A stretch of 64,000 nucleotides of DNA, from the NCBI GenBank assembly GCA_965276635.1, contig CBDIBC010000002.1, positions 102,528 to 166,527 on the forward strand, given 5' to 3'. Numbering within the stretch: the stretch's first letter is position 1; each line of letters starts with the position of its first letter. A program made the translations under genes and the position numbers. The notes below the pieces were generated by a model, which saw only the letters and a list, made by a program, of their open reading frames with translations, made no database searches and had not been told where the DNA came from. This DNA is from Acidimicrobiales bacterium. GTDB lineage: Bacteria; Actinomycetota; Acidimicrobiia; Acidimicrobiales; Palsa-688. Below, in pieces: positions 38,132 through 64,000 of this stretch.

Positions 38132-38752
38132 TCAGCCCTGCAGCACGGCCGGGTCCCGTAGCACCGCCTGGTCGTGGGGCACTGGGTCGGTCATCTCGGC
38201 GACTCGCCGGTCGAACGCCGCGCAGAGTAGGTGGACGGCGACCTGGTGTACCTCTTGGACGGTGGGCGTGCCGGCGGCGACGATCGCGACGGTGTCGTCG
38301 CTGGCGGCGGCCAGCGGATTGGGGGCCGGCCCGGTGAAAGACCACACCACCATCCCAGCTGCCCGAGCGGCGTCCGCTGCGGCGACGACGTTCGGCGAAC
38401 GGCCGGAGGTGGAGAACGCGATCAGCACGTCGTCGGGACGTCCGTGGGCGCGCACCTGGCGGGCGAACATCTCCTGCGGGCCGTAGTCGTTGGTTAGGGC
38501 GGTGAGCGCGGAGCCGTCGACGTGGAGTGCGAGAGCGCTGAACGGGGGCCGCTCCTCGAGGTACCGGCCGACCATTTCTGACGCCAGGTGCTCGGCGTGG
38601 GCCGCGCTGCCGCCGTTGCCGACCGTGAGCAGCCGGCCGCCGTCGACCAGGCGGTCGGCCAGGCGCTTGCCCCAGGCCTGTACCTGTGTCAGCGCTGTCC
38701 GCTCGAAGTGATCGAGGGCGTCGCGCAGGGCGTCGAGGTGGGTGCCGGTCAT
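38132..38752 (-). CDS. gmhA: D-sedoheptulose-7-phosphate isomerase
   Basis: SIS domain; LTVGNGGSAAHAEHLASE..IAFSTSGRSPNVV. Confidence 0.85.
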   Translation of the reverse strand: MTGTHLDALRDALDHFERTALTQVQAWGKRLADRLVDGGRLLTVGNGGSAAHAEHLASEMVGRYLEERPPFSALALHVDGSALTALTNDYGPQEMFARQVRAHGRPDDVLIAFSTSGRSPNVVAAADAARAAGMVVWSFTGPAPNPLAAASDDTVAIVAAGTPTVQEVHQVAVHLLCAAFDRRVAEMTDPVPHDQAVLRDPAVLQG

Positions 38753-42439: not shown

Positions 42440-43365
42440 GTGGTCACCTCCAGGAGCTGGCGGTCCCAGTCGGCGAGGAACCGTCCGAGCCCGAAGCGTT
42501 CGACGGCGTAGTCCCGGGCGGCGCGTCCGGCGGCGGCGGCCTCCGCGGGCTCGTGCACGAACCGGCGCACTCCTTCGACCACCGTGTCGAGCCGGTTGGA
42601 CACCACGCCGGCCGAGCGTGGGACGACCTCGGCGGCCTCGGTGGTGGCCAGGGCCACGACCGGGAGGCCCAGCTGCATGGCCTCGATAAGGCTCAGCCCG
42701 AGCGAGGTCCACCGGTTGGGGTGGAAGTAGACCCGGCGTCGGGCCATCTCGGCGTGTAGCTCGGCCTGGGGCACGTCGCGCCCGCCGAAGGGCTCGGACC
42801 GCATCCCGAACAGGTCGACGGCGCTCGCGGCGCGCACCGGTGCGAGGAGGTCGGTCCCGGTCACCCGGCCCCGCCGGCCGGGATCATTGATGACGGCGAC
42901 GGCGGCGGCCAGTTCGCCGGTGTACCGGTGCCCTGGGTCGACGATGCCGTGCTCGATCACCGACGTCGGGGCTTTGCCGCTGTCCCAGAACAGCTGGTTG
43001 AACCACGTCACGTGCACGACGGGGATGTCCGTCCGGTCGGCCAGGGGGTGCACCATCGACGCTACGGGTCCATCCGGCGCGTTGTGCTCGAGGTACACGG
43101 CCGGCAGGTCGCGCCCGGCGCGCCGGCCGAGCCACTGCTGGACGAGGTCGAACTCCTCCCGGCGCTGCAGGACCACGACGTCGACGTCGGTGGCGTGCAG
43201 CTGGTCGGGGGTCAGCTCCTCGGCCGACGCCGGCCAGTTCCATGTCCGGGCCCGGCCGAGGCCGCCGGGACCCCGGCCCGGCAGGACGGGGAGCAGGTAG
43301 CAGTGAGAGCCCTGCACGAACGCCGTCGTCCACGATCCGTGCACGTGCCAGAGCAGGATCCTCAC
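42433..43365 (-). CDS. glycosyltransferase (GT4-like/GT1 fold)
   Basis: VRILLWHVHGSWTTAF..EPFGGRDVPQAELHAEMARRRVYFHPNRWTSLGLSLIEAMQLGLPVV; GTGA overlap with the upstream stop. Confidence 0.7.
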   Translation of the reverse strand: MRILLWHVHGSWTTAFVQGSHCYLLPVLPGRGPGGLGRARTWNWPASAEELTPDQLHATDVDVVVLQRREEFDLVQQWLGRRAGRDLPAVYLEHNAPDGPVASMVHPLADRTDIPVVHVTWFNQLFWDSGKAPTSVIEHGIVDPGHRYTGELAAAVAVINDPGRRGRVTGTDLLAPVRAASAVDLFGMRSEPFGGRDVPQAELHAEMARRRVYFHPNRWTSLGLSLIEAMQLGLPVVALATTEAAEVVPRSAGVVSNRLDTVVEGVRRFVHEPAEAAAAGRAARDYAVERFGLGRFLADWDRQLLEVTTC

Positions 43366-44405
43366 GAGCCGCCACCACCACTGCGGGCCGGGGTGCGCCG
43401 GGCGGCGAGCTTCTCGACGGCGTCGGTCACCTCGCCGACGGGTACCTCGTCGATGCACGGGTGACCGGGGACCGGGCACGTCCTGGCCCTGCACCCGCCG
43501 CAGCCGATGTCCTGCCGGCCGAGCAGCACGTGGTCGACCCGCCAGGGCCGCCACCGCACGGCCGGTACGGTCGGCGCGTACAGGCTGACGACCGGCGTGC
43601 CGACCGCCGCGGCCAGGTGGGCGGGCCCGGTGTTACCAACGACGACGGCCCCGGCGCCGGCAAGGACGCCGGCGAGGCCGGCGAGGTTGACGCAACCGCC
43701 CAGGTCGAGGGCGCCCGGTGCGGCGACCGAGGCGGTCAGGGCTGTCTCGTCCCGGCCGCCGGTCACGACCACGTCACGGCCGGCGCGGAGCAGGCGCTCG
43801 ACGAGCTCGCGGTCGCGCACCGGGCTCCACGCCCGGGCCGTGACCGAGGCGCCCGGATGCACCACGACGTAGCCGGCGGCCGGGAGTCCGGCCGGGGGTG
43901 CCCCGAGCAGCTCGGGGCGCACCATCAGGCTTCCGTCGTCCCGGCTCTGGAGGTGAAAGCCCATTGCGGCGCCGAGCGACAGTGACCGCTCCACCTCGTG
44001 GATGTCGTCGTCGACGTGGTGGCGCACGTCGAGCAACGACCCGGGGTAGTCGACGCTGATGGCCCCGATAGTCCTGACGCCGGCGAGGCGCAGCAGCAGT
44101 GCGAGCGGCAGCGGGCTCTGGTGGAACGACGTGGCGACGACGGCAGTATGGACCTCCGCCGCCCGCACCGCGTCGACCAGGTCCTCGACCGCCCCCCGCT
44201 CGACGGGGGAGGACACGCCCTCGATCCACGGCGCCCGTCCGACGATGACCGCGTCGACGCCAGGGAGAAGCCCGGCCGCCGCGGCCCCCGCCGGGCTGCA
44301 CAGATAGGTGACCGGACCCTCGGCGGCGCACGCCCGGGTGAGCGGTCCGGTCAGGAGGACGTCGCCGACGCTGTCCATGCGGGCGACGAGGATCCCGCTC
44401 AACAC
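43362..44405 (-). CDS. glycosyltransferase family 9 (heptosyltransferase)
   Basis: VLSGILVARMDSVGDVLLTGP..VVVGNTGPAHLAAAVGTPVVSLYAPT. Confidence 0.75.
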   Translation of the reverse strand: MLSGILVARMDSVGDVLLTGPLTRACAAEGPVTYLCSPAGAAAAGLLPGVDAVIVGRAPWIEGVSSPVERGAVEDLVDAVRAAEVHTAVVATSFHQSPLPLALLLRLAGVRTIGAISVDYPGSLLDVRHHVDDDIHEVERSLSLGAAMGFHLQSRDDGSLMVRPELLGAPPAGLPAAGYVVVHPGASVTARAWSPVRDRELVERLLRAGRDVVVTGGRDETALTASVAAPGALDLGGCVNLAGLAGVLAGAGAVVVGNTGPAHLAAAVGTPVVSLYAPTVPAVRWRPWRVDHVLLGRQDIGCGGCRARTCPVPGHPCIDEVPVGEVTDAVEKLAARRTPARSGGGGS

Positions 44406-46009
44406 ATCCCCGCGAGGACCACGTCGACCGCCTGCAGGAGGTCGACGGCGACCACCGGTGCCGCCGCCACCTCGGCGGGGCGCGTCACCCGGGTCGGCAC
44501 CAGCACGCCTCGCGCGCCGGCGGCGCGTGCCGCGGCGAGGTCCGAGCCGATGTCTCCGATCACCGCGCTCGACGCCGCCGCCACCCGCACCACGGCCGCG
44601 GCCGCCTGCACCAGCCCGGGGGCCGGCTTCCGGCACGCGCAGCCGTCGGCAGGGGCGTGCGGGCAGACCTGCCAGGTGTCGAAGGGGCCGAGCAGCTCGT
44701 CCACCCGCCGGTTGATCGCCAACACCTCGTCGAGGGTGGTGTGGCCCCGACCGACCGCCGCCTGGTTGGTGACCACTCCGGTCCGCATCCCGGCGGCCCG
44801 GGCCCGCGCAACCGCCCGGCGGGCACCGGGCATCAGGGCGACCCGGTCGGGGTCACGGTTGCCGGGCACGTCGACGATCAGGGTCCCGTCGCGGTCGAAC
44901 AGGATCAGCTCAGGTCGCCACGAGGTGTCAACCCGTCGGGAGCGGGGGCGGAGCCGGTAGGGCCGGAGGGCGGCCGAGGGCCGCAGCGCCAGCGGCGAGC
45001 GGCCCAGGCCGAGGGGCGAGCCCTCCTCAGCCCGGAGCGCACCCGGGACCGCGGCCCACCCGCGTGCGGCGTGGAACACGGCGGCGGGAGGGATGAGCGC
45101 CGAGGTGACGAGCATGGTCGCCACCTCGGAGCGGGTGCGGGGGCCTGGGGCGATGCGCTCCGCTGCGAACGCTGCCGTCGTCGCGGCCCAAGTCGCGCCG
45201 AGCGCCCCGGCGAGCGCCCGGCGGCCGGTCAGCGCAGCGGCAACGGCTCCTGCGGCGGCGGCGGTCGACACGGAATAGCGGCCGTTGCGCGCCGGTCCGG
45301 CGCCCACTGCGTCGCGCCAGCCGGTGCCGTGGAGGGCCCGCATCATGGCGTCGTCGGCGTTGCCGGCCTGGGTCCGGACGCTCACCCAGCGGCCCGACGG
45401 CCGGACAGGGTGCTCGACAGTGCGGGCACCCTTGACGATGACGTACCCGGCGTTGGCGACCCTAAGGCCGAGGTCGGCGTCCTCGCGGTAGGCGCGCGGG
45501 AAGCGCTCGTCGAATCCGCCCACCTCGGCGAGCACCTCCCGCCGGTAGGCCATGTCGGCGGTGATCCACCGGGCTGCCTCCAGGCCGGCGACGCTGCGCT
45601 CCCAGTCGGTCGGCCGCCGGTCGGCCGCCAGCGGCACGCGCACCACGCCCTGCGAGGCGGCGACCTCGACCGGGAGGCCAGTCAGGTCGTCGAGGAGCTG
45701 GAGCGCCCAGCCGGGTTCCGGCGCGACGTCGTCGTCGAGGAACACCACCCACGGGCTGACCGTCGAGCGCCAACCGGCGTTGCGGGCAGCGGCCGGGCCG
45801 CGCCCACCGGAGCGGAGCACTCGCACGTCGGGGCTGACGTCGAGGGGGCTGGCGGACGCCGGGGGCCGGTCGTCGACCACCACTACGGCATCGGGCCGGG
45901 GGCCTTCGCTGTCGGCTAGCGCGGTGAGGAGGGTGCGCAGCGATGGCCGAGCGACGGTCGGCACGACCACGCTGTACCCGATCGGGTCCGGGCCGGTGAT
46001 GCCGCTCAC
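44399..46009 (-). CDS. gmhB: fusion protein: GT2 glycosyltransferase domain + D,D-heptose 1,7-bisphosphate phosphatase (HAD) domain
   Basis: N-terminal YSVVVPTVARPSLRTLL..VVVVDD..FLDDD; C-terminal ELILFDRDGTLIVDVPGNRDPDRVALMPGARRAV..GVVTNQAAVGRGHTT..CACRKPAPG..GDIGSDLAAARAAGARGVLV; GTGA overlap with the upstream stop. Confidence 0.75.
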   Translation of the reverse strand: MSGITGPDPIGYSVVVPTVARPSLRTLLTALADSEGPRPDAVVVVDDRPPASASPLDVSPDVRVLRSGGRGPAAARNAGWRSTVSPWVVFLDDDVAPEPGWALQLLDDLTGLPVEVAASQGVVRVPLAADRRPTDWERSVAGLEAARWITADMAYRREVLAEVGGFDERFPRAYREDADLGLRVANAGYVIVKGARTVEHPVRPSGRWVSVRTQAGNADDAMMRALHGTGWRDAVGAGPARNGRYSVSTAAAAGAVAAALTGRRALAGALGATWAATTAAFAAERIAPGPRTRSEVATMLVTSALIPPAAVFHAARGWAAVPGALRAEEGSPLGLGRSPLALRPSAALRPYRLRPRSRRVDTSWRPELILFDRDGTLIVDVPGNRDPDRVALMPGARRAVARARAAGMRTGVVTNQAAVGRGHTTLDEVLAINRRVDELLGPFDTWQVCPHAPADGCACRKPAPGLVQAAAAVVRVAAASSAVIGDIGSDLAAARAAGARGVLVPTRVTRPAEVAAAPVVAVDLLQAVDVVLAGMC

Positions 46010-47688
46010 GCCGGCACCGCGCGTCGCTGCCGGAGCACCCCCGGTCCCCGCCGGGGTCGGCGGACGACGAACGGCCCGAGGACCAGCAGGTCGACGGGGG
46101 CCGAGCCGAAGCATTCCATTGCGTCCCGGGGGTCGTCGACCATCGGCCTCCCGGCGGTGTTGAGGCTGGTGTTGACCAGCACCGGGACGCCGGTCCGCTG
46201 CTCGAAGGCCACGAGCAATTCGTGAACGAGGGGTTCGGTCGCCCGGTCTACGGACTGCACTCGCGCCGAGCCGTCGACGTGGATCGCCGCACCGAGGCGC
46301 GCCTCCCACGCGGGGCGCACTCGGTGGGTGAAGAGCATGTACGGGCTGGGAAACGGGCCGTCGAAGATCTCGCTCGCCCGCTCAAGGGTCACCATCGGCG
46401 CCACCGGCCGGAACTGCTCGCGACCCTTGACCGTGTTGAGCCGGATCAGCGTCTCGGCCCGGCGGGGGTCGGCCAGGAGACTGCGGTGCCCGAGCGCCCG
46501 GGGGCCGTACTCGCTGCGGCCCTGGAACCACGCCACGATCCCGTCGGCGGCGAGCACCTCGGTGGTCGTCGCCGTCAGGTCGTCCGGTCGCTCGTAGGGG
46601 AGGTCGGCTTCGAGCAGCCACCCCTCCAGCTCGTCGTCGGACCAGCTCCGCCCGAGGGCGGCGGTGCGCAACGGCTCAACCGGGTCGCCGAGGTGGTGAG
46701 CCTGGTAGAGAGCACCGCCGAGGGCCGTGCCGGCGTCGCCTGAGGCTGGCTGGACCCACACCTGCTCAAAGGGCCCGTGGCGCAGCAGGTGGGAGTTGGC
46801 GACGCAGTTGAGCGCCACGCCGCCGGCCATCGTCAGGCACCGGTCTCTCGTACGGCCGTGGAGCCAGCCGGCGAGGTCGAGGAGGACCTCCTGCAGGCGG
46901 TGCTGGACGCTGCTCGCCAGGTCGGCGTGGCGGTGGTCCCAGGCGCCCTCACCGTCGCGGGCCGGTGCCAGCTGGGCCCAGGGGATCGTCCCCACGCGGA
47001 AGCCGCCCTCGCCGTCGGCGAAGATCAGCTCCCGGAGGACCGGCAGGTGCCGCGGCTCGCCGTAGGAGGCCATGGCCATCACCTTGTACTCGTCGGAGGA
47101 GCGCTTGAAGCCGAGGTGCACGGTCAGCTCCTCGTACATGAGGCCGAGCGAGTGCGGCAGCTCCTGGGTCCGGTACACCTCGAGGTCGCCGGCAACGGAC
47201 CGGCCAGCGAGGTGGGTCGTAGTCTCACCCCGCCCGTCGAGGACCAGCACGCTCGAGTCTCGAAACGGTGCGGCGAGGTAAGCGGAGGCGGCGTGGGCGA
47301 CGTGGTGGCGCACGTAACGGAGCCGGCCGCCGTCGATGCCCGGAATCGCCGACTCCAGGAACGAAGGGGCCCTATGGGCGTAGAACGTCCGCATCGGCTC
47401 CCACTCGTCCGCAGCCAGGTCGGCGCCCGAGGTACCAGGCGCCCCCAGCAGCGACGGGTCGTAGGAGTAGGTGACAGCATCGACATCACCAGGTGAAACC
47501 CCGGCCTTACGGAGGCACCACCGGGCAGCATTCACGGGCAACTCCCATGTCGAGAACGGCACCGCCTCCTTGCCGTGCTTGATTCGCGTGAAGCGCTCCT
47601 CCTCGGCCGCAGCCACGATCCGACCGTCGATGACCAGCGCTGCGGCCGGGTCGTGGAACACTGCGTTGATACCGAAAACGACCGCCAA
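46006..47688 (-). CDS. carbamoyltransferase (NodU/CmcH/TobZ family)
   Basis: MAVVFGINAVFHDPAAALVIDGRIVAAAEEERFTRIKHGKEAVP..RYVRHHVAHAASAY..GGVALNCVANS. Confidence 0.85.
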   Translation of the reverse strand: MAVVFGINAVFHDPAAALVIDGRIVAAAEEERFTRIKHGKEAVPFSTWELPVNAARWCLRKAGVSPGDVDAVTYSYDPSLLGAPGTSGADLAADEWEPMRTFYAHRAPSFLESAIPGIDGGRLRYVRHHVAHAASAYLAAPFRDSSVLVLDGRGETTTHLAGRSVAGDLEVYRTQELPHSLGLMYEELTVHLGFKRSSDEYKVMAMASYGEPRHLPVLRELIFADGEGGFRVGTIPWAQLAPARDGEGAWDHRHADLASSVQHRLQEVLLDLAGWLHGRTRDRCLTMAGGVALNCVANSHLLRHGPFEQVWVQPASGDAGTALGGALYQAHHLGDPVEPLRTAALGRSWSDDELEGWLLEADLPYERPDDLTATTTEVLAADGIVAWFQGRSEYGPRALGHRSLLADPRRAETLIRLNTVKGREQFRPVAPMVTLERASEIFDGPFPSPYMLFTHRVRPAWEARLGAAIHVDGSARVQSVDRATEPLVHELLVAFEQRTGVPVLVNTSLNTAGRPMVDDPRDAMECFGSAPVDLLVLGPFVVRRPRRGPGVLRQRRAVPA

Positions 47689-47747
47689 TTTTTGGCCTCC
47701 TGCCTCGCGATGACCCAGCGACAGTGATACCCGGCGCCAACCAAGTG

Positions 47748-47779
47748 AATCCTCTGCAGATAATCACCTGCAGAGGATT
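47748..47779. promoter_or_regulatory. perfect 12-bp inverted repeat (candidate operator) in the divergent promoter
   Basis: AATCCTCTGCAG-ATAATCAC-CTGCAGAGGATT between the carbamoyltransferase (minus) and GT2 (plus) starts. Confidence 0.5.
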
Positions 47780-47789
47780 TACTAGGCCA

Positions 47790-48659
47790 ATGGGCACATC
47801 GCAGCGGGACCGACCGCTAACCCTCGTCGTGGCGACCATGAACCGCCGGTCCGAGGTGCTGGCGACGCTGGGCCGGGCCCTCGACCGCCCCTTCCCGCCG
47901 CCGGTGGTCGTCATCGACAACGCCTCGGCCGACGGGACGGCGGCCGCCGTCCGAGCGACCTTCCCCGATGTGGCGCTGCTGGCGCTGCCGGCCAACCTCG
48001 GTGCCGCCGCCCGCACCGTCGGCGCCCGCTTGGCGACCACCCCGCTGGTCGCCTTCGCCGACGACGACTCGTGGTGGGAGGCGGGGGCCCTCGAGCGGGC
48101 CACCGCCTGCTTCACCGAGGACCCGGCGCTCGGGCTGCTCACCGGACGGGTCCTCGTCGGCACGGAGGCGACGCTTGATCCCACGTCTGCGGCGATGGCA
48201 GCTGGCCCGCTTGACGAGTGGCTGCGCCCGTCGGCCTCCGGCCGTCGAGGCGTGACCGGCTTCCTGGCCTGCGCCGCGGTCGTGCGACGCGAGCCGTTCC
48301 TCGCCTCCGGCGGGTTCGAGCCCCACCTGGTGATCGGCGGAGAGGAGGAGCTCGTCGCCCTGCGGCTCGCCACGGCCGGATGGAAGCTCGTCTACGACCC
48401 CGAGGTGGTCGTCCGTCACCACCCCTCACCCTCCCGTGACGCCCACCGCCGCCGACGACTCCTGGCCCGCAACGCCGTGCTGACGGCCTGGCTGGCCTAC
48501 CCGCCGCCGCAAGCGCTGCGGCGGAGCGTCGCAGCTTTGACCGGCCCCGAAGGTGTCGTCGGCGCGGCGAGCGCCCTGCGCTCGGCAGGGTGGGCGGCCG
48601 GCCGGCGCCACCCGGTCCCCCAAGCAGTCGGGGCGGCGTTCGAGGCCCTCGCCGGCTGA
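47790..48659 (+). CDS. glycosyltransferase family 2
   Basis: LTLVVATMNRRSEVLATLGRAL..VVVIDNASADGT..AFADDD. Confidence 0.8.
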   Translation: MGTSQRDRPLTLVVATMNRRSEVLATLGRALDRPFPPPVVVIDNASADGTAAAVRATFPDVALLALPANLGAAARTVGARLATTPLVAFADDDSWWEAGALERATACFTEDPALGLLTGRVLVGTEATLDPTSAAMAAGPLDEWLRPSASGRRGVTGFLACAAVVRREPFLASGGFEPHLVIGGEEELVALRLATAGWKLVYDPEVVVRHHPSPSRDAHRRRRLLARNAVLTAWLAYPPPQALRRSVAALTGPEGVVGAASALRSAGWAAGRRHPVPQAVGAAFEALAG

Positions 48660-48670
48660 GCGCCGGCGGT

Positions 48671-49585
48671 TCACGAGACGTACTGGCGGGCCTTCGAACG
48701 GTCGTGGTCGGCGTCGAGGAGGCGCAGGCCGACCTCCACGTCGGCACCGACGTTCCGGCGAGCAGCGACCACCCACCACCCTCCCCTGAGTGCCTCGACC
48801 ACCGCCCGAAGGCTGTGGCCGTCGGCCGGCGCGCTGCGCAGCAGCGCCGCACTCCGGAGCGCTGCCGAGGACACCGGTCGGCGAAGCCACGTGAACCAGA
48901 GGGTGTTGCGGATCCCTTGCCGGCGACGTAGGTGCGGGTCGCGCAGCACCGATGCCTGGTGGTGGATCTCGAGTTCCGGCACGTAGGCCATCTCCCAGCC
49001 GGCGTCGGCCAGGTCGGTTCCGGTGAGCTCCTCCTCGCCTCCGATGAGGAGCCGCCCCGAGAAGCCGCCCACGGCCCGGAACGCCTCCGCTCGTACCGTC
49101 GATGCCCCGGCCAGGAAGCTGAGCAGCGGTGCGCCGGGGCCGCCCGCCGGGCGGGGGAGGGGGCTGCGGTCCATCTCCTCGGACATGGCGTCGGTGGTCC
49201 CGCCCGGCTCGACGACGATGCGAGCGGTGACCACCGCCAGGTTTGGTCGCGCCTGTAGCAGGCCTACGGCCCGGCGGAGCGACCCTGGCGACCACCACGT
49301 GTCGTCGTCGCAGAACGCCACGAACCGGGTGCCTGCCAGCATGACCCCCACGTTGCGGCCGGCGCCGCCCATGTTGCAGCCGAGCGGCACCACGGTCACC
49401 CCGGGGAAGTCCCGCCGCACCGTCGCCACCGTGGCGTCGGCGGAGCCGTTGTCGACGACCACGATGCCGGGGTCCTCCTCGAGGGTCTCGAGGAGGTGGA
49501 GGGTGCGAGTCAGCTCGTCGCACCGGTCCCGTGTGATGATGACGACGGTGAGGTCTTCGCGTAGCGACGTCGGGCTCGCGGCCAT
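48671..49585 (-). CDS. glycosyltransferase family 2 (paralog of 47790-48659)
   Basis: LTVVIITRDRCDELTRTLHLL..VVVDNGSADAT..AFCDDD. Confidence 0.8.
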   Translation of the reverse strand: MAASPTSLREDLTVVIITRDRCDELTRTLHLLETLEEDPGIVVVDNGSADATVATVRRDFPGVTVVPLGCNMGGAGRNVGVMLAGTRFVAFCDDDTWWSPGSLRRAVGLLQARPNLAVVTARIVVEPGGTTDAMSEEMDRSPLPRPAGGPGAPLLSFLAGASTVRAEAFRAVGGFSGRLLIGGEEELTGTDLADAGWEMAYVPELEIHHQASVLRDPHLRRRQGIRNTLWFTWLRRPVSSAALRSAALLRSAPADGHSLRAVVEALRGGWWVVAARRNVGADVEVGLRLLDADHDRSKARQYVS

Positions 49586-49586
49586 G

Positions 49587-50558
49587 TCAGCCGACCGGTC
49601 GCAGCAGCTCGACCAGACGGTCCCGGTCGGTGAGGAGGGCGGCCCGGCCGTCCTCGGTGCAGGCCGCCACCCGGTCCCGTCCCTCGGCGGAACGGCACCA
49701 GCCGACCGCCTCGTCGAACGCGTCGTGACTGACGGCTTCGGCGCTGATCACCGCCGGCCACCCGAGTGCCCTGGCCTGTGCGCCGACCTTGCCCCCGCCT
49801 GCGACGGGGTCGACGGCCACCACCGGCACCCCCGCGGCCAGCCCGAGGACCAGTCCGTGCAAGCGGGTCGTCACCACCACGTCGACGCGCGCTACTGCGG
49901 CCGCGAACTGCTCCGGGGTGGACAGCTGGCGGGCGTCGCCCGGGTGCAGGCGGGTGTCGAGTTCGACGACGGCGAGGTCGGTGCCGGTCAGCCACCCGTC
50001 GAGGCAGCGGTGGACGCCGTCGTGGCGCTGCCGGTTCCCGTACTCGGGCTGGGAGTGGCTCCGGATGACCGCCGCCACCGCCACGTCGGCCACCGGGCGG
50101 TGGGCCGTCCCGAGGGCCAGGTCGACCGCGGCCCGGCCCGGCTCGTCGCGTGCCAGGACCGTGACGGGGGCGAGGGCCGGCGTGCGGTCCACGACCGATA
50201 CCCCGACGGCCACCCGCTGCGAGCCGGTGAACCGGGCGAAGAGCTCCTCCACCAGCTCGCCGCCGGCGGGCCCGCAGACGAACACCAGGTGACCGACCGT
50301 CGCCGGCGGGACGTCGTGCCACGCCAGCTGGCCGCGGCGTCGGAAGGTGGCGGCCATGGCCACGTCGTGGTCGATGCCGGCGTCGTCGAGCCACCGGCTG
50401 ACGGTGCGTTGTGCGAGGAGGTCGCCAGCGGTGACCTCGGCGGTGTCGAAGCTGAACCACCCGGTCACGAGGACACCCCTGGCGCCGACGGGTGCGTACG
50501 GGTTAGGACATGCCAGGGCACTCCTGGCGGTCGACGTCGGGGTGGACTGGCTGAGCAT
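49587..50558 (-). CDS. polysaccharide pyruvyl transferase family protein
   Basis: VVTTRLHGLVLGLAAGVPVVAV; start uncertain (ATG 50558 or downstream). Confidence 0.6.
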   Translation of the reverse strand: MLSQSTPTSTARSALACPNPYAPVGARGVLVTGWFSFDTAEVTAGDLLAQRTVSRWLDDAGIDHDVAMAATFRRRGQLAWHDVPPATVGHLVFVCGPAGGELVEELFARFTGSQRVAVGVSVVDRTPALAPVTVLARDEPGRAAVDLALGTAHRPVADVAVAAVIRSHSQPEYGNRQRHDGVHRCLDGWLTGTDLAVVELDTRLHPGDARQLSTPEQFAAAVARVDVVVTTRLHGLVLGLAAGVPVVAVDPVAGGGKVGAQARALGWPAVISAEAVSHDAFDEAVGWCRSAEGRDRVAACTEDGRAALLTDRDRLVELLRPVG

Positions 50559-51811
50559 CGCTCTCCGATCTGTGGCGGGCGTTCGCTGACTTGGACCTAC
50601 CCGGATCTGCCGGTCACATCGACGACGACTCGAGTGGTGACGCAGCTTGTCGAGGAGACTGTGCAGGCGGCGCGACACCTGCATCTGGCTTACCCCGAAC
50701 TCCTCGCCGACGCGATGCCGAGCGCATCGGGGCCGCCACCCTCGCCGAAGGATCAAGACCGACCCCCATCACCGTCAAGCACTGGCCCTTGGTGCACCCT
50801 CGCGCAAGGCTGGCATTCCCTCCGACTAGGACCGCTCGCCAACTACTCGCCGCCATCCTACCGATCAGGCTGCTGCCCGCGCCGGCTGCGGCCGCCGGAA
50901 GCCCCTTCGAGCAGCTCGACCCCCGCCATGACCTTGGGGTCACGACGCGCTCAGGCAACCCGGTAGCGGTCAGCGAAGACCGACCCGTCGAAATCAAGCC
51001 TGCCGACTGGGGCGCCCTGGCGCCGCTCCGCGGCCTGAACAGTGAGAGCCGCCCACCCTTCGCTTCGACCGAGGTGCTCACCGATCTCACGGAAAGACAT
51101 ACCCCGTTGGGGTGCCGGGCTGTCATGCCGGCCGGCCGAGGCCGCGTCGGCTGACGCCGGAGTCGAAGGGCCTCGTGCTCGATGGCCAGTACGTCCGGCC
51201 GTTTGCTCTCGATGCCGAGGTAGCCCTTGAGAACCGCGACGTGCTTGGTCAGGTAGTCCGACGGCATAGCCGTAGCGCAGTCGGGCGCGAGGCTGAACAG
51301 GAACGAGTCCGTGCAGAGCTCGCGGCCACTCTCGGATGCCCGTTCATCAAGGCGATCGCAGTGGCGGCGCAGCATTGCCATCGTCTCGCCATCGACGTGA
51401 AAGGTGCGGCCACGTCGCGTCTTGGTCGTCTTAACCCTTCCGGACTCGCCGATGGCGCTGTCTACTGAGATCTGGCCCTTGGACCACCCGATGCCGGATC
51501 GACGGACGCCGACGAGCTCGCCGCGACGCATGCCGGTGACGGCCCCGAGGAGAAGGATGGCAGCGAACATCGGGAACGACGTCCGCTGCGGTCGACAACA
51601 ACAAGTGGAGCTCGTCGACTTCGGGCGGCGTCCGCTCCTTCGAGGAGTGAGTATTTGTGGGCAGCTCGAAGTCGGCCATCGGGTTGCGACTGGACATCCC
51701 GCGTCGCTTTGCCTACCGGAAGAACGGGGCGTGGAGACTTTTGGCTTGCCTAAGCCGGGAGTTGCTCTGAGCATCCCCCCGTTGGACGGACACTTCGTAT
51801 AGGAGGAGTCC

Positions 51812-52128: not shown

Positions 52129-53002
52129 TCCGCTGCGTCGATGACCAGAAGGCTGCCGGGTTCCCGGTCCCCACTGCGTGTGAGGCGACGGGGGTGTCCA
52201 AAGTCGGGCTATTACGACTGGGGCGCCCGGGAGGCGGCCGGGCCGACCGAGCGTCAGATCGCCGATGACCCCCTGATCGAGTTGATGCGAGAGGTCCACG
52301 CCGCCTCTGACGGCAACTACGGGGTGCCGCGCATGTACAAGGAGCTGCGCCGGGCCGGGATGGTCATCAACGACAAGAAGGTCCGCCGGCTGATGCACCG
52401 GGCCGGGCTGATCGGACGTCACCATCGCCGCCGGTGCCGCACCACCTTCCCCGGGCCCGGCTATGAGACGGTCCCTGACCTCGCCGGGCGGCGCTTCGAC
52501 CCCGGCGCCCCCGACGTGGCCTGGTGTCAGGACATCACCTACATCGCCACGGGGGAAGGCTGGCTGTTCGTGGCGTCGACCCTCGATCTGGGGTCGCGTC
52601 GATTGTTGGGCTACTCGATGGCCGACCACATGAGAACCGAGCTGGTCACCGACGCCCTGTCCATGGCCCTCACCGCCCCGGGGCGGTGCCGCCGCCGGGG
52701 TGATCGCCCACGCGGATCGGGGCACCCAGTATCTCTCCAACGACTACCTCGAGTTCTGCCACACCCATCAGCTGCGACCATCGGTCGGAAGAACCGGAAT
52801 CTGTTGGGACAACGCCGTGGCTGAGAGCTTCTGGCAGTCCCTGAAACGGGAATGCATCCAAGGACAGGTCTTCGCCACCCGCGCCGAAGCCCGCCGAGCG
52901 ATCTTCCGGTGGGTCAACTGGTACAACGCCAGCCGGCTTCACACCAGCCTCGACGGGGTCCCCCCGATCGAGTGGGAACAGCAATACCGTCAAGCTTCAT
53001 AA
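52102..53002 (+). pseudogene. IS3-family transposase OrfB (DDE integrase core), two further indels
   Basis: SGYYDWGAR..YGVPRMYKELRRAG..; DDE region HADRGTQYLS..ICWDNAVAESFWQSLKRE; indels at an aaa run (about 52190) and a gggg run (about 52690). Confidence 0.65.
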
Positions 53003-57594: not shown

Positions 57595-58239
57595 CTATGC
57601 TCCAGTCGCTACTGCCGTGCTGCGTTGGACGTGCTCATCGCCGGTGGTGCTCGAGATCGGTGGTCCTTCGGGTCCCGCCAGGGTAAGGCGTTCCGTTCGG
57701 AAATCAATCCGCACGGCCCGGAATCGGCTGAGGATGTCGGAACCGAGCGTTCCCATGAGTCCCGGGGCGTGTCGCGACTGTAGAGCGCCTACGCCGAGGA
57801 TCTCATTTCGAAGCGGCAGGCCGTCGACTGAGAGGTCTCCGGGTGCCGTGAGGGAAATGGTGTGGGCGCAGCCGAAGCTGGTGGCATGGCGGGTGTCGAA
57901 GGTGTCGAGGTGCAGCCGTGCGGCCAGGCCAGAGTCGATGATGCTTGCGGCGGAGCCGGTGTCAACGTCGAAGGTGAATGGGCCCCGGCCGTCGACGCAG
58001 ACGCCGGCAACCACGACCGCAAACCCCGGCACGGGTCGGACAACTCGAACGGGAACCACGATGTCGGTGGCTGACCCCGACAGGTGCGTCTCGCAGTTCC
58101 GAAACGCCGGAAAAGCGATCGGACTGCCCGCCCCAGTCGACGGTGGGCGGCTGGAGCAGCTGACCAACGATATGCCGAGGAGCACCGCACCTAGCAACGC
58201 GAGGCAGGCAGCTTGGCCCCGGCCTGCCTGCCTCGTCAT
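57595..58239 (-). CDS. retropepsin-like (clan AA) aspartyl protease lipoprotein
   Basis: Lipoprotein signal LLGAVLLGISLVSC; FTFDVDTGSAASIIDSGLAARLHL (DTGS active site). Confidence 0.5.
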   Translation of the reverse strand: MTRQAGRGQAACLALLGAVLLGISLVSCSSRPPSTGAGSPIAFPAFRNCETHLSGSATDIVVPVRVVRPVPGFAVVVAGVCVDGRGPFTFDVDTGSAASIIDSGLAARLHLDTFDTRHATSFGCAHTISLTAPGDLSVDGLPLRNEILGVGALQSRHAPGLMGTLGSDILSRFRAVRIDFRTERLTLAGPEGPPISSTTGDEHVQRSTAVATGA

Positions 58240-58659
58240 TCGCCGCCGCCGGTGCTGGGTCTGCACCGGCGGTGATCGGCTATCAGAGCACAACGTCCAG
58301 GGGCCGATTCGTTCACGGGTGCAGTGTGCCTGTTCGCTCAAGACGATGCCGATCGAGTTGCTGCGCCCAGACCAGGAGCGGCTTGAGAATTTCGGGCGGC
58401 ACCTGGCCGACCAACCTGTGAGCGATCAGGGCGCCGCCGGGATCTGGCCGCGTGGTTAGCGACGCCACGAGTGGCGGACGGAGTCCCGCGGCAACATCAT
58501 CAGGGTCCCTGGCCGCCCGTCGCCACCCTTAGGCAGGTGGAGACGACCCGCGCTGGGTGTCCGGTGCCCGCCTGGCTGGTCGGCCCCAGCCCGAGGTTCA
58601 CCATCCGGGAAGCCCCCCAGAATCGATGACCGCATACATACCCGGGCCGTTGACAGAAT

Positions 58660-59910: not shown

Positions 59911-62900
59911 TTACGGATTGTTCCCGAAGGCGTGGGCGTCGCCTTGGGCTCCTATGAGGCGGTAACCGCTGTCGCTGTTGGCGACGATCCCGACGACAGG
60001 AGTGGTGCCGGGGGCTCCGAGCGACCCGTAGAACTTGGCGTCACCCAAGGTGAACACGCCACCATCGGCAGCGACCAGCCAGTACCCGTAACCATCAGGG
60101 GTGGCAGCCATGCCGACGATGGGCTGGTTGAGATGCCTGTCGCCCTCAGACCCGTAGAACTTGGCGTCACCGAAGGTGAACACGCCACCATCGGCGGCGA
60201 CCAGCCAGTACCCGTAACCATCAGGGGTGGCAGCCATGCCGACGATGGGCTGGTTGAGATGCCTGTCGCCCTCAGACCCGTAGAACTTGGCGTCACCGAA
60301 GGTGAACACCCCACCATCGGCGGCGACCAGCCAGTACCCGTAACCATCAGGGGTGGCAGCCATGCCGACGATGGGCTGGTTGAGATGCCTGTCGCCCTCA
60401 GACCCGTAGAACTTGGCGTCACCGAAGGAGAACACCCCACCATCGGCGGCGACCAGCCAGTACCCGTGACCGTCAGCGGTGGCGGAGACACCGATGATCG
60501 GGGCGTTGAGGCGGGCGCCGTTCTCCGAGCCCAGGTCGGCGGCGTTGCCGTGCGTGGAGAGCGTCCCGTTCCCGTCCAGCGCCCAGTACCCGGCCCCGCC
60601 CGGGGTGGCGGCGACCGCACCACCGGTCGGTTCCCGGACCGCCGCCGGTCCGCTCGGCGGCGTGGTCACCGGCGGCGTGGTCACCGTGACCGTGACCGAA
60701 GGCGTGGTCGCTGTCCCGGCGCTGTTGGTGGCGGTGACGGTGAAGGTCCCCGACGCGGTCGGGGTCCCGGAGAGCACCCCGGTAGTGGGGTCGAGGGCCA
60801 GTCCGGCTGGCAGGGCGCCCGAACCGACGGCAAACGTCGGTGTCGGGATACCCGACGCCACGAACGTGTAAGAGTAGGGCGAACCGGCAGCAGCCGAAGA
60901 TGGGCTGTCAGCGCTGAACACCGGGGTAGCGGAAGAGACCGGGGGTGCCGGCGGGCCGGCGGGGGCGACGGTGGTCGAGGCCGGCGAGGGGCTCGAGATG
61001 CCGACCGTGTTGGCGGCGGTCACGGTGAAGGTGTAGCTGTCACCGTTGGTGAGGCCGTTCACGGTGATCGGGCTGGACGTGGCGGTGGCGGTCTGGCCGC
61101 CATGCGCCGGGGTCGTGGTGTCGGTCGCGGTCACCGTGTAAGAGGTGATGGCCGAACCGCCGTCTGACGCCGGGGCGCTGAACGCCACGCTGGCCTGCGC
61201 GTTCCCGGGGGTGGCGCTGACGCCGGTCGGGGCGCCAGGAGCGGTGGCGGCGGGGGCGACGGTGGTCGAGGCCGGCGAGGGGCTCGAGATGCCGACCGTG
61301 TTGGCGGCGGTCACGGTGAAGGTGTAGCTGTCACCGTTGGTGAGGCCGTTCACGGTGATCGGGCTGGACGTGGCGGTGGCGGTCTGGCCGCCATGCGCCG
61401 GGGTCGTGGTGTCGGTCGCGGTCACCGTGTAAGAGGTGATGGCCGAACCGCCGTCTGACGCCGGGGCGCTGAACGCCACGCTGGCCTGCGCGTTCCCGGG
61501 GGTAGCGCTGACGCCGGTCGGGGCGCCAGGTCGCTGCTCGACGGTGTAGGAGTCGGTGGCGACGGCGGTGCTGGCGTCATCCGATGAGGCCGTGGCCGTG
61601 TCGGTAGCCGGCCCCGAAGCGGCGGCCGTGGACACCAGGACCGGCACGGCGATCGCTGGAAGGACTGTGCCTGCGGTCAGTGGGCTCGCCGAAGAGGCAG
61701 GATAGGCGCAGGTGACGGTCTGGTTGCTTGGGGCTCCGCACGTCCAACCCGTCCCGCTGGGCTGCCCGGGAAGAAGGCCAGCTGGGAAGGTGTCGGTGAC
61801 CGACACCGGATCGGTCTCGTCGCCGGCGGTGGGGCTGACGGTCGGCTGGATGGTGAAAGCGGAAGATGTGCCACCGGTCAACACCCCGCTGGTGCTGTCG
61901 GTGTTGGTGGCGGTCAATACCGGCAGTGGGCCGGTCAGGGTGCTGGCCGAGAAGTTGGCAACCTCGTGGGTCTCATAGGCGTTGGCCGTCGACGCTGTCC
62001 AACCGAACGTCAACTGCCACGGGGCCCCGGTCGCCGGGTTGATCCAGGACGAGGGGAAGGAGGCGTTGGCAGTGAGGCTCTGGAGGCTACCGGTGAGCGT
62101 CTGGGGCGCCGTCGCTCCGACAGGGGTGTAGGAGACGACGAAGCGCTGGGCACCCACGGTCAGCCCTGACGCAGTAGTCGCAGAGCTCGCCGTCGGGTTC
62201 ATGGCCAGTTCGACTGGCACCCCAGTCGATCGGGTGGTGGACCCAGGCGTGTCGAGGGTGTCGCCTCCCAGGTTGTTGGTGCCGCTGGGCGTGGTTCCGG
62301 CGGACGAAGCCAACACGCAGTAGCCGGCGGTGCCATTCCCGGCCCCTCGCGCGGTCACCGCCTGCGGGGAGGTGGGGTCGGAAGTGTCGTTGGTGCAGCC
62401 GCTGCCCTGGGACGCACTGTTGAGGTAGTTGCCGTACACGTCGAAGCCGACGCCCAGATATCCGTGAGGGAGTCCTGACTCACCGTTGGCGGCGTTGGCC
62501 GCGTAGCCGAGCGACCCGCCGAGGGGACCGGTGGAAGTCGGGGGGACAGGGTGAGCAGGGTCGGTGGCGGCCAGGTCGAACGATAGACCGTCACCCGCCG
62601 GCCCACCGGTACCCGAAGGAGCTCCGAACTGGTACAGATCGAACTTGACATCCAAGCCCTGACTGGTCGGAAGCCCCGCGGTGTTGAACACCGACCCAAC
62701 CCTGTCGTGAGCCGACGAGTTCAACTGCAAGGCGCCGCCGGGGGCGGCATCGGTCGCCGGCGAACAACGAGGTATCGACGTCGCACCAGACCCGGCAGCG
62801 GTCAGGCAGGCCTGGTTCGTCCCGAAAAACGCCGCCGGCAGGACCCACTGCCCCACCGGCGTGGACGCGCCGGTGAATGTCTCGCTGCCTAGGGGCGTCA

Positions 62901-63045
62901 AGGTCGTCGCGGTCGCGGCCATCGCGGGAAGCGTCGTGGCCGACAGCAAACCTACAGTGGCCGCCGCCCCCACACCGGCGAGGAATCGCCAGCGCAGATT
63001 GTCCCGACCAGCGGCAAGTACAAGTAGTAGGCGCATGCGCTCCAT
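59911..63045 (-). CDS. large secreted multidomain protein: signal peptide, L-type lectin-like domain, 2 x FN3, Ig-like domain, 4-5 x 42-aa WLVAADGGVF-type repeats
   Basis: MERMRLLLVLAAG..TLPAMAA signal; lectin signature GDGLSFDLAA...HGYLGVGFDVYGNY; exact 97-aa FN3 duplication; PYSYTFVASGIPTPTFAV..LPAGLALDPTTGVLSGTP; GYWLVAADGGVFTFGDAKFYGSEGDRHLNQPIVGMAATPDGY x4. Confidence 0.8.
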   Translation of the reverse strand: MERMRLLLVLAAGRDNLRWRFLAGVGAAATVGLLSATTLPAMAATATTLTPLGSETFTGASTPVGQWVLPAAFFGTNQACLTAAGSGATSIPRCSPATDAAPGGALQLNSSAHDRVGSVFNTAGLPTSQGLDVKFDLYQFGAPSGTGGPAGDGLSFDLAATDPAHPVPPTSTGPLGGSLGYAANAANGESGLPHGYLGVGFDVYGNYLNSASQGSGCTNDTSDPTSPQAVTARGAGNGTAGYCVLASSAGTTPSGTNNLGGDTLDTPGSTTRSTGVPVELAMNPTASSATTASGLTVGAQRFVVSYTPVGATAPQTLTGSLQSLTANASFPSSWINPATGAPWQLTFGWTASTANAYETHEVANFSASTLTGPLPVLTATNTDSTSGVLTGGTSSAFTIQPTVSPTAGDETDPVSVTDTFPAGLLPGQPSGTGWTCGAPSNQTVTCAYPASSASPLTAGTVLPAIAVPVLVSTAAASGPATDTATASSDDASTAVATDSYTVEQRPGAPTGVSATPGNAQASVAFSAPASDGGSAITSYTVTATDTTTPAHGGQTATATSSPITVNGLTNGDSYTFTVTAANTVGISSPSPASTTVAPAATAPGAPTGVSATPGNAQASVAFSAPASDGGSAITSYTVTATDTTTPAHGGQTATATSSPITVNGLTNGDSYTFTVTAANTVGISSPSPASTTVAPAGPPAPPVSSATPVFSADSPSSAAAGSPYSYTFVASGIPTPTFAVGSGALPAGLALDPTTGVLSGTPTASGTFTVTATNSAGTATTPSVTVTVTTPPVTTPPSGPAAVREPTGGAVAATPGGAGYWALDGNGTLSTHGNAADLGSENGARLNAPIIGVSATADGHGYWLVAADGGVFSFGDAKFYGSEGDRHLNQPIVGMAATPDGYGYWLVAADGGVFTFGDAKFYGSEGDRHLNQPIVGMAATPDGYGYWLVAADGGVFTFGDAKFYGSEGDRHLNQPIVGMAATPDGYGYWLVAADGGVFTLGDAKFYGSLGAPGTTPVVGIVANSDSGYRLIGAQGDAHAFGNNP
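60031..60534. repeat. tandem 126-bp repeats (about 4 copies) inside the large protein gene
   Basis: Near-identical units begin at 60031, 60157, 60283 and 60409. Confidence 0.8.
60964..61545. repeat. 2 x 291-bp near-perfect tandem duplication (one mismatch) encoding duplicated FN3 domains
   Basis: 60964-61254 matches 61255-61545 with a single g/a difference. Confidence 0.85.
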
Positions 63046-63263
63046 CTCCGATCCTCGAACCGAGGCGCTCAGCACCTCCCACAGGGTTATCGGCAGCGAG
63101 AGTCGTCACCTGAACAGGCACCGCCGACGGTCGAGAGAGAAACGGTCACGCCGACCATGGCACTACGACATGACCGTCTACGAGACCACGGTGCGGCCGT
63201 TCAGTTCGGGTGTTTTCGTGCCGATAGAGGCGTCATGGTCGGTGGCTGCGGAATCGTCGGACT

Positions 63264-64000
63264 GTGACGTCTCTGTCTCCTGGGGAACGGCGAGGGCGCC
63301 GGAATAGACCGGCGGATCATCTGCCAGTCGACCGGCTGGTACCCGACACTGCCAGAGCACAGTCCGCCGCTGGCGCCGGTCCGACCTCGCTGACAGCAGA
63401 CCTGGATCTGAGCGAAGCGCTCCGAGGGGCCGGCTCGCGTGGAGAGTGGACGCTGGTGTACCAGCCGAAGGTGCTGGCCCAGACCCGGCGGATCGAGTCG
63501 GTCGAAGCCCTGCTGCGCTGGGAGCACCCCGTCTTGGGGGTCGTGGCCCCTGACCGGTTCATCGTGGTGGCCGAAACCGCCGGGATGATGGGCGAACTAA
63601 CGCGCTGGGTGCTCGCGGAGGCCCTCGACGCCCAGACCCGCTGGCAGGCCGCCGGGGTCGACGTGGCCGTGGCGGTCAACCTGTCCGCCCAGTCAGTCGG
63701 GGACTTCGGGCTGCTCGGATGGATCGACGAGCAACTCCGATCTCGCGGTCTGCGCCCGTCATGTCTGACCGTGGAGATCACCGAGACCGCGGTCATGGCC
63801 GACCCTGAAGTCGCCACCCGGTTCCTGGCCGCTCTGCGGGTACTGGGGGTACGGGTCTCGGTCGATGACTTCGGGACCGGGTTCACTTCACTCAGCGTGC
63901 TGGCTCGTCTCCCCCTCGACGAGTTAAAGATAGACCGGTCCTTCATCCGCCGCTCCGCCACCTCCACCGCGGACGAAGCCGTGATCCGCTCGGTACGAGA
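63264..64000 (+). CDS. EAL-domain c-di-GMP phosphodiesterase (3' end beyond the window; start uncertain)
   Basis: LVYQPKVLAQTRRIESVEALLRWEHP..VNLSAQS..EITETAVM..VSVDDFGTGFTSLSVLARLPLDELKIDRSF. Confidence 0.6.
   Translation, partial: MTSLSPGERRGRRNRPADHLPVDRLVPDTARAQSAAGAGPTSLTADLDLSEALRGAGSRGEWTLVYQPKVLAQTRRIESVEALLRWEHPVLGVVAPDRFIVVAETAGMMGELTRWVLAEALDAQTRWQAAGVDVAVAVNLSAQSVGDFGLLGWIDEQLRSRGLRPSCLTVEITETAVMADPEVATRFLAALRVLGVRVSVDDFGTGFTSLSVLARLPLDELKIDRSFIRRSATSTADEAVIRSVR

Follow-up and report, generated by a model that had tools for sequence, protein, structure and literature searches.

The window, by which the whole 64,000-nt stretch of DNA analyzed is meant, carries on its minus strand the coding sequence of a secreted multidomain protein, whose features are collected in Table 1. 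The maximal ORF (59911..63075) gives 1054 aa if counted from the first GTG at 63075, and this was the length assigned in the first-pass annotation. The frame itself is real, but 1054 aa describes only the maximal ORF; the ATG at 63045 has GAGGA 6 nt upstream, and the likely product starting there is of 1044 aa, a length that is favored because an identical 1044-aa protein (P0211) is on record in a public protein collection. Clustering at 90% identity leaves the protein as a singleton in a collection of 15 billion proteins, and no relatives above 54% identity were found in protein, genome, or metagenome collections. Using the lectin and DUF11 region as the query, no relative above 45% identity was recovered from genome_contigs and none above 53% from metagenome_contigs. 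Scans for promoters and terminators in the surroundings of the gene returned nothing exceeding the shuffled expectation.

Table 1. Features of the gene and its product, in window positions (residue numbers refer to the 1044-aa product)
Feature	Positions	Strand	Basis or remarks
Coding sequence, 1044 aa	59911..63045	minus	ORF list; likely ATG start 63045; stop codon 59911-59913
Putative Sec signal peptide, aa 1-43	62917..63045	minus	Basic n-region, hydrophobic FLAGVGAAATVGLLSATTL, then AMA/A; read directly from sequence
Divergent L-type (legume-like) lectin domain, ~aa 48-375	61921..62904	minus	Carries Asp152, Gly176-Gly177, Asp202, Tyr204, Asn206
DUF11/CLIPPER-like Ig-fold stalk domain, ~aa 376-500	61546..61920	minus	Cys pair, no lysine
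FN3 domain 1, first copy of the 291-bp tandem unit	61240..61530	minus	Pfam fn3; TRF; exact-run analysis
FN3 domain 2, second 291-bp copy	60949..61239	minus	60957-61239 equals copy 1 save 1 synonymous nt
He_PIG Ig-like domain, then Thr/Pro-rich linker (TTPPVTTPPSGP)	60679..60924	minus	Pfam PF05345, E 1e-12
C-terminal six-bladed beta-propeller	59914..60618	minus	Six 42-aa GYWLVAxDGGVFxFGDAxFYGS units, last shortened
Near-identical 126-bp block, ~3.5 units, blades 2-5	60023..60467	minus	TRF 97%

The general layout proposed at first pass, a secreted protein with an L-type lectin head, FN3 and Ig stalk domains, and a C-terminal beta-propeller, is borne out. The predicted mature N terminus, ATTLTPL, aligns with the homologues P0121, P0122, and P0124 immediately past their signal peptides, and the order of a signal-peptide-like N terminus, a lectin head, and a stalk of one DUF11-like, two fn3, and one He_PIG domain is that of fibrillar adhesins. 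The 1044-aa protein contains neither an LPXTG/LAxTG motif nor a TM segment or a lipobox, and its C terminus, which ends in GYRLIGAQGDAHAFGNNP, has no sortase-type signal (motif, hydrophobic segment, and basic tail).

The head shows the beta-sandwich fold of legume lectins. Its residues Asp152, Gly176-Gly177, Asp202, Tyr204, and Asn206 align to Asp83, Gly103-Gly104, Asp123, Tyr125, and Asn127 of peanut lectin, so that both the sugar-binding triad (Asp, Gly, and Asn) and the Ca2+ loop D-x-Y-x-N are present. Across 64 homologues the sugar-binding and Ca2+ columns are invariant or at least 90% conserved, except for the Tyr204 column, which is not among the columns listed at that level. As the canonical residues are found on alignment, the objection named beforehand in the first-pass annotation, that the domain might lack sugar-binding residues, falls away. 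Moreover, the Mn2+ ligand Glu121 of legume lectins corresponds to Gly200 in the head, which in this respect resembles the Ca2+-only animal lectins, unlike legume lectins. The domain is assigned to no family by Pfam or NCBIfam and does not match the Pfam models PF18483 (Lectin_L-type_dom) or PF00139 even at E<=10; its close homologues score 27 to 36 bits against a Pfam cut-off of 78.3. A profile built from the 64 homologues, in turn, matches legume lectins in the PDB (E 4.6e-7 and 4e-6). Compared with peanut lectin (1ciw), ERGIC-53, and VIP36, the domain is ~100 residues longer and has additional disulfide-bearing loops. Taken together, these features suggest a Ca2+-type L-lectin head that would bind carbohydrate.

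Behind the head, the DUF11-like domain has the CnaA-like Ig fold of the CLIPPER/DUF11 family (PF01345). The characterized CLIPPER domain (PDB 9ifr) is stabilized by a Lys-Asn isopeptide bond, whereas aa 376-500 of the present protein contain no lysine and therefore cannot form one; some DUF11 domains are known to be devoid of this bond (bioRxiv 10.1101/2025.04.25.650565). Then follow the two fn3 domains (Pfam, E 5e-19), and the earlier statement that they are encoded by a 291-bp tandem duplication with a single base of difference agrees with the repeat analysis (TRF 60957-61530, 2.0 copies). The copies are identical at 282 of 283 aligned nucleotides, the sole difference being synonymous (GCT/GCC, window 61504 versus 61213), and the 8-nt junction of the duplication is different from either flank. 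Because the relative P0124 has one FN3 at the equivalent position, the comparison of the sequences indicates that the duplication is lineage-specific. Other relatives differ in this region: P0121, P0122, and P0123 have the head, DUF11, and propeller in common with the query and carry no FN3 or He_PIG, and L020 and L021 have in common the head and the propeller, with a different and longer stalk. The number of FN3 domains in relatives is 0, 1, or 3, those copies being diverged and nonidentical. It is plausible that the duplication could permit variation of the stalk length.

A beta-propeller had been expected from the C-terminal repeats, and structure prediction indeed gave one, with six blades and a pLDDT of 90.4. 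Among known folds it comes closest to NHL and PknD-type propellers, with only 5 to 17% identity to all fold matches; the NHL repeat HMM (Pfam PF01436) does not match it at E<=10, and Pfam and NCBIfam assign it to no family. Sub-threshold matches of the blades to Ribosomal_L24e, DUF5818, and SUKH-3 were dismissed as spurious. The family to which the propeller belongs amounts to ~19,400 representatives when clustered at 50% identity, its named matches being all from Acidimicrobiales, and has no Pfam or NCBIfam model; a literature search for the GYWLVAxDGG propeller in Acidimicrobiia found nothing relevant. No other ORF within the 64-kb window contains blades. In 146 of 250 homologues the propeller stands at the C terminus, and an N-terminal hydrophobic segment is present in 163 of 246. 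Among its partners are YkuD, NlpC/P60, CHAP, VanY, transglycosylase-like, 3D, Amidase_3, Amidase_6, SpoIID, and PG_binding_1 domains, and also Ig-like stalk domains; no partner domain could be recognized in roughly two thirds of the short proteins with this propeller.

The blades are encoded by the second repeat array of the gene. Four near-identical 126-bp repeats had been described here; the array exists (TRF 60023-60483, 3.7 copies, 97%), but it consists of six 42-aa units, of which ~3.5 are near-identical. Over the 445 nt of the high-identity block, comparing each copy with the next gives 4 mismatches, of which 2 are synonymous, and a single synonymous nucleotide separates unit 3 from unit 4. 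In the close homologue P0121 the corresponding array reaches only 75% matches, and in L020 and L021 no array is detected by TRF at the default score; on this comparison, the near-identity of the query array lies far above the family background. Among 250 homologues, 192 of 265 arrays have six blades and 53 have five that are detectable, and multiples (11-12 and 18) also occur. Blades 1 and 6 of the query share 67% identity with the blades at these positions in L020 and align as positional orthologues of blades 1 and 6 of the closest relatives, whereas the internal blades are 62 to 100% identical to one another in the query and 29 to 57% in L020. Since the arrays are quantized at six and the outermost blades keep their positional orthology, the alignments indicate that the internal blades were homogenized at constant number (copy-correction) and not expanded. 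The gene is a clean case of concerted evolution within a closed repeat fold, in which blade number and terminal blades stayed fixed.

These observations bear on the model put forward earlier, a Periscope-type adhesin in which recombination would lengthen and shorten both arrays within the population, with length variation and possibly phase variation as the outcome. The gene has domain-sized tandem repeats that are near-perfect in DNA, on which homologous recombination is described to act in Periscope Proteins (PMC9704523), and stalk composition varies widely among its relatives. However, the FN3 array has only two copies, and the constancy of six blades with orthologous ends does not fit 126-bp units that continue to be gained and lost; a change of blade number would break the closed fold. 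Phase variation also fails: the 291- and 126-bp units are both multiples of three inside the coding sequence, so ON/OFF switching is impossible, and neither is a frame-shifting or promoter-altering tract such as defines contingency genes. Moreover, no strain-level relatives were found in the collections searched. The model is accordingly judged improbable.

A still smaller probability is given to the arrays being an assembly artifact, in which the assembler collapsed or expanded the tandem repeats, or smoothed them into a consensus, and so produced their copy numbers or near-identity. Repeats of 126 to 291 bp at 99% identity are hard for short-read assemblers, as pointed out for Periscope-class proteins (PMC9704523), and the gene occurs in one assembly only. 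Against this, the six assembled blades are exactly the family norm, both arrays keep the reading frame intact, the copies are told apart by distinguishing substitutions, and the gene lies on a long source contig of 386 kb.

With no sorting signal in the protein, its C-terminal propeller can be compared with what stands at this end in other members of the lectin-head family. Of 79 head homologues, 20 have LAxTG/LPxTG, or a TM segment with a basic tail, at the C terminus (a recognizable LAxTG/LPxTG-type motif being present in 11 of these 20), and others carry an OmpA domain. Because the propeller often occurs in one chain with peptidoglycan enzymes, and because sortase signals or OmpA replace it in other head homologues, domain co-occurrence and positional replacement suggest that it is probably an envelope-retention module. 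The propeller might instead act as a second lectin, making the protein a released, unanchored, bivalent cross-linker, for example of the biofilm matrix or for polysaccharide capture. This seems unlikely: the fold matches lead to NHL and PknD-type propellers, all at the low identities given above, the recognizable partners are mostly peptidoglycan-remodeling enzymes, which act at the wall, and the equivalent C-terminal position in head homologues is occupied by sortase signals or OmpA domains.

A functional pairing of the lectin with the nearby glycan island, also proposed at first pass, is not sustained by the neighborhood. The two are ~9 kb apart, with a transposase fragment in between. Ten island proteins and the EAL fragment were compared by tblastn with 31 homologous loci (flanks of 5-10 kb, homologues of <=54% identity), and no match was obtained in any of them, so that within these flanks no island-type genes occur and a conserved lectin/island or lectin/EAL linkage is rejected. 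The closest homologue on a long contig is surrounded by housekeeping genes.

Considering all this, we favor, with a probability of about 0.6, a secreted fibrillar-adhesin-like protein from a high-GC actinobacterium, probably one of the Acidimicrobiia, with a lectin head, an Ig-like stalk, and a propeller held at the envelope, whose repeats derive from two recent recombination events. After Sec export, the N-terminal Ca2+-type L-lectin head would bind a carbohydrate ligand, and the Ig-like modules (DUF11/CLIPPER-like with no isopeptide bond, two FN3, and He_PIG) would hold it off the cell, adhesion being the presumable biological role. The six-bladed propeller would retain the protein at the cell envelope noncovalently, from the place that sortase signals or OmpA-like domains take elsewhere in the family. 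Both recombination events would be recent and lineage-specific: a tandem duplication that gave the stalk its second FN3, and a homogenization of the internal blades, by gene conversion or by cycles of deletion and duplication, with the blade number kept at six.

Viewed as an adhesin, the protein offers little that is new, surface proteins with a lectin head, an Ig stalk, and identical stalk repeats being already well documented. The notable part is the propeller tail, which represents a very large family with no curated model; in Acidimicrobiia, which are poorly studied and mostly uncultured, its members repeatedly share a polypeptide with L,D-transpeptidases, NlpC/P60, CHAP, amidases, and further wall enzymes. 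As a more tentative proposal, one that we consider doubtful, the GYWLVAxDGG propeller could be a previously undescribed envelope-targeting module across Acidimicrobiia and relatives, a counterpart of SLH, CWB2, or choline-binding repeats, by which lectin-headed adhesins as well as peptidoglycan-remodeling enzymes would be tethered to a polymer of the wall; this polymer might conceivably be a glycan that is pyruvylated or contains heptose, similar to the one encoded 9 kb away. Gene conversion would then preserve the identity of the internal blades, since each would offer an equivalent binding site. Should the tail be such a wall-targeting module, it would explain the localization of secreted envelope proteins in Acidimicrobiia, improve the annotation of thousands of "hypothetical" proteins, and offer a handle for surface display or for cell-wall probes in this clade.

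L-type lectin heads are also found in SraP from Staphylococcus aureus (PDB codes: 4m00 and 4m01), in YwfG from Lactococcus (PDB code: 7yl4), and in Aap, SasG, and Pls (PDB code: 8g1l; PMC9999234), although the sequence identity of the head to these Gram-positive adhesin heads is only 13 to 18%. Those proteins belong to Firmicutes and are anchored covalently through LPXTG and sortase, whereas the protein described here ends in a six-bladed propeller with no sorting signal. A comparison with fibrillar adhesins and Periscope Proteins (PMC8286594, PMC9704523) reveals the same order of an adhesive head, a stalk of FN3/He_PIG/DUF11-type domains, and a C-terminal envelope module, which in the present protein would be the propeller, and Periscope Proteins likewise carry tandem domain repeats highly identical in DNA, as do the two FN3 here. 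Nonetheless, two identical stalk repeats are the minimum array, the second repeat array is a closed propeller and not a rod, and the Periscope class is defined by copy-number variation from strain to strain (PMC9704523), the present gene being known from one assembly.

Finally, the propeller itself can be placed beside two kinds of known modules. In Gram-positive bacteria, SLH, CWB2, choline-binding repeats, LysM, SH3b, and PG_binding_1 serve as noncovalent, repeat-type cell-wall-targeting modules. Like these, the propeller family is a repeat-built terminal module common to wall hydrolases and surface proteins in one lineage; its fold differs from theirs, the likeness being one of domain co-occurrence only. 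With NHL-type propellers, such as the extracellular sensor of Mycobacterium tuberculosis PknD (PDB code: 1rwi) and Brat/TRIM71, the six-bladed fold is common, but the identity is only 9 to 14% and the signature GYWLVAxDGGVFxFGDAxFYGS is distinct from NHL repeats. Moreover, the PknD propeller is joined to a kinase, whereas the family described here is joined to peptidoglycan enzymes and surface proteins.

The lectin gene, which the first-pass annotation placed at 59911-63045 with 1054 residues, is a real ORF, single and long, but lies on the minus strand, and 1054 is the count from its first GTG. The product probably has 1044 residues, its start being an ATG that lies 6 nt downstream of a GAGGA motif; this numbering was adopted because the protein from this ATG matches exactly P0211, a protein of the public collection (NCBI/ENA, 386-kb contig) that is a singleton at 90% identity. 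Residue r begins at window position 63045-3(r-1). The N-terminus shows basic residues (R14, R18, and R20), a hydrophobic stretch, and AMA|A, with the predicted mature end ATTLTPL lining up with the post-signal sequence of homologues, which is consistent with the putative Sec signal peptide already proposed.

Pfam detects two fn3 domains (E 5e-19) and one He_PIG (E 1e-12), the latter being the domain annotated as putative Ig-like, and gives no match in the first ~500 or the last ~245 residues; NCBIfam gives no match anywhere in the protein. For the lectin head, a search with residues 35-500 recovered 79 relatives with identity up to 54%, and none closer in any collection searched. Many of them have weak matches to PF18483 (L-type lectin), the more distant ones additionally to PF00139 and the stalk domain DUF11. 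The AF2 model built from 64 of these relatives is confident, with a pLDDT of 93.8 and a pTM of 0.92, and at the sequence level the head-family profile hits PDB legume lectins (E 4.6e-7 and 4e-6). Asp152, Gly176-Gly177, Asp202, Tyr204, and Asn206 correspond to Asp83, Gly103-Gly104, Asp123, Tyr125, and Asn127 of peanut lectin, all these columns except that of Tyr204 being invariant or at least 90% conserved within the family. The Mn2+ ligand Glu121 of legume lectins is replaced by Gly200, as in the Ca2+-only animal L-type lectins. Because of the profile match and the conserved sugar-binding residues, whose loss had been considered as a refutation, the head is taken as a divergent, probably functional L-type lectin.

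A comparison of the head family reveals differences in the stalk. P0121, P0122, and P0123 combine the head, DUF11, and six blades, lacking FN3 and He_PIG, and P0124 has the head, DUF11, one FN3, and the beginning of a He_PIG-like domain. The closest relatives are encoded in JGI metagenome contigs, L020:160-4620 (Ga0302324_100067705; 1486 residues) and L021:4404-8963 (Ga0302325_10040880; 1519 residues), with head identities of 53% and 50%. Their order is head, DUF11, FN3, He_PIG-like, FN3, YVTN/lactonase-like propeller, FN3, linker, and the same C-terminal six-bladed propeller, so that, compared with our protein, the stalk inserts an extra propeller (129-bp repeats, 77-81% identity) and more FN3. 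Moreover, 20 of the 79 homologues end instead in an LAxTG/LPxTG or related motif, after which come a hydrophobic segment and a basic tail, and others carry OmpA domains. Judging from these sequences, the head and an envelope-associated C-terminus are constant and the stalk is freely reshuffled, a pattern known for fibrillar adhesins (PMC8286594).

The expected β-propeller was recovered in the AF2 model of residues 791-1044 with 47 homologues (pLDDT 90.4), with eighteen strands in six equal blades. In an exhaustive HMMER scan, this family counts 19,403 cluster representatives at E≤1e-3, of which 9,626 also pass E≤1e-30, and a word-indexed search gives at least ~8,000 candidates; among the 120 matches listed, every source-named one is 'Acidimicrobiales bacterium'. 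The family is extremely widespread, uncharacterised, and uncurated. According to a blade HMM on 250 homologues, arrays contain 6 (192), 5 (53), 7 (3), 11-12 (7), or 18 (1) blades, a quantised number that fits the expectation for a closed propeller; five-blade arrays probably hold one degenerate blade, as in our protein. Among P0001-P0330, members with 11-12 or 18 blades correspond to two or three propellers. The 42-residue blades also draw spurious sub-threshold Pfam matches (Ribosomal_L24e and DUF5818), and member P0002 is named 'ribosomal protein L24E' by its source. The partner domains that can be recognised are mostly peptidoglycan-active or -binding (YkuD, NlpC/P60, transglycosylase-like, PG_binding_1, 3D, CHAP, VanY, Amidase_3, Amidase_6, and SpoIID), Ig-like stalk domains being frequent too (fn3, TIG, PKD, He_PIG, and Big). 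The propeller is C-terminal in 146/250 homologues, and 163/246 have an N-terminal hydrophobic segment.

Coordinates of the features in the window
Feature	Position	Strand	Detail
Gene cluster	3-25 kb		acyl-CoA dehydrogenases, thiolase-like protein, luciferase-like monooxygenase, amidohydrolase, cytochrome P450
OmpA-domain protein	33072-34706	-	partial protein-kinase match; upstream of island
FHA-domain protein	35378-36124	+	adjoins OmpA-domain protein
Glycan-biosynthesis island	38132-50756		GmhA-like SIS, HldE-like kinase/nucleotidyltransferase (PfkB+cytidylyltransferase), two GT9 heptosyltransferases, GT4 and GT2 enzymes, carbamoyltransferase, polysaccharide pyruvyl transferase
IS3-type transposase fragment	52141-52824	+	HTH_21 + partial rve
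Lower-G+C stretch	52.8-59.9 kb		~7 kb
Weak retropepsin-like match	57595-58341
Lectin ORF	59911-63075	-
ATG start	63045	-
126-bp unit (TRF)	60023-60483		3.7 copies, 97%
Near-identical block	60023-60467		445 nt; begins within unit 2, ends within unit 5
291-bp unit (TRF)	60957-61530		2.0 copies, 99%
FN3-copy difference	61504 vs 61213		GCT/GCC, synonymous
EAL-domain ORF	~63400-64000	+	c-di-GMP phosphodiesterase-like; runs past window end; divergent from lectin gene

Regarding the DNA repeats, the two FN3 copies agree at 282 of 283 positions compared base by base, in accordance with the single-base difference first reported, and the 8-nt junction, part of the Ala-Thr-Ala linker codons, is unlike both flanks. 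Relatives carry 0, 1, or 3 FN3 domains, none near-identical in DNA, and the pair is a lineage-specific tandem duplication that lengthens the stalk by one module. The 126-bp array is also real, although it comprises six units, of which ~3.5, not four, are near-identical. One synonymous nucleotide separates units 3 and 4, and successive copies within the near-identical block show 4 mismatches, two of them synonymous. The equivalent array of P0121 gives only 75% matches, and TRF at default score does not report it in the closest relatives, L020 and L021; therefore, this near-identity exceeds what protein-level constraint yields in the family.

The first reading of these repeats as a variation switch is largely rejected. 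Frameshift-type phase variation is impossible because 291 and 126 bp are both multiples of three. As for ongoing expansion and contraction, blades 1 and 6 share 67% identity with their L020 counterparts and 17-38% with other blades, which identifies them by sequence as positional orthologues, and both proteins have six blades in all, so the propeller has gained none. Blades 2-5 are mutually 62-100% identical here and 29-57% in L020. Internal blades have overwritten one another while their number stayed constant, presumably either by gene conversion or by a deletion/duplication cycle under purifying selection for the closed fold. That the assembled blade number is the family norm argues against assembly collapse or expansion. 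The FN3 pair could in principle allow the stalk to vary in length, as in Periscope Proteins (PMC9704523).

The proposed pairing of the lectin with the glycan island found no support, since ~9 kb separate them, island-gene relatives are absent from the fetched flanks of all 31 loci carrying head homologues, and P0121, on a long contig, sits amid housekeeping genes. The island has a raised G+C (0.74-0.76 vs 0.65-0.70 in the flanks), and heptose-pathway genes are among its content, the host being an actinobacterium, presumably Gram-positive. Beyond the transposase fragment, the ORFs in the gap are unrecognisable, candidates in the lower-G+C stretch having no Pfam match except the retropepsin-like one, and this stretch may be decayed mobile DNA. 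No relative of the EAL-domain ORF lies beside head homologues in the 31 loci. The gene set of the 3-25 kb cluster is the kind usually found for lipid or steroid catabolism in actinobacteria. What is left of the pairing idea is speculation, namely that the propeller may be linked to a wall polymer.

Taken together, the description that fits the gene product best is that of a lectin-headed, fibrillar-adhesin-like surface protein. Its propeller would retain it at the envelope, as suggested mainly by the fact that this module fills the slot taken in relatives by sortase signals or OmpA domains. The propeller family is more noteworthy than the lectin gene, its function being a testable question, and the novelty of the protein lies in this extremely widespread C-terminal module: the chain ends in an uncharacterised six-bladed propeller in place of a known anchor.
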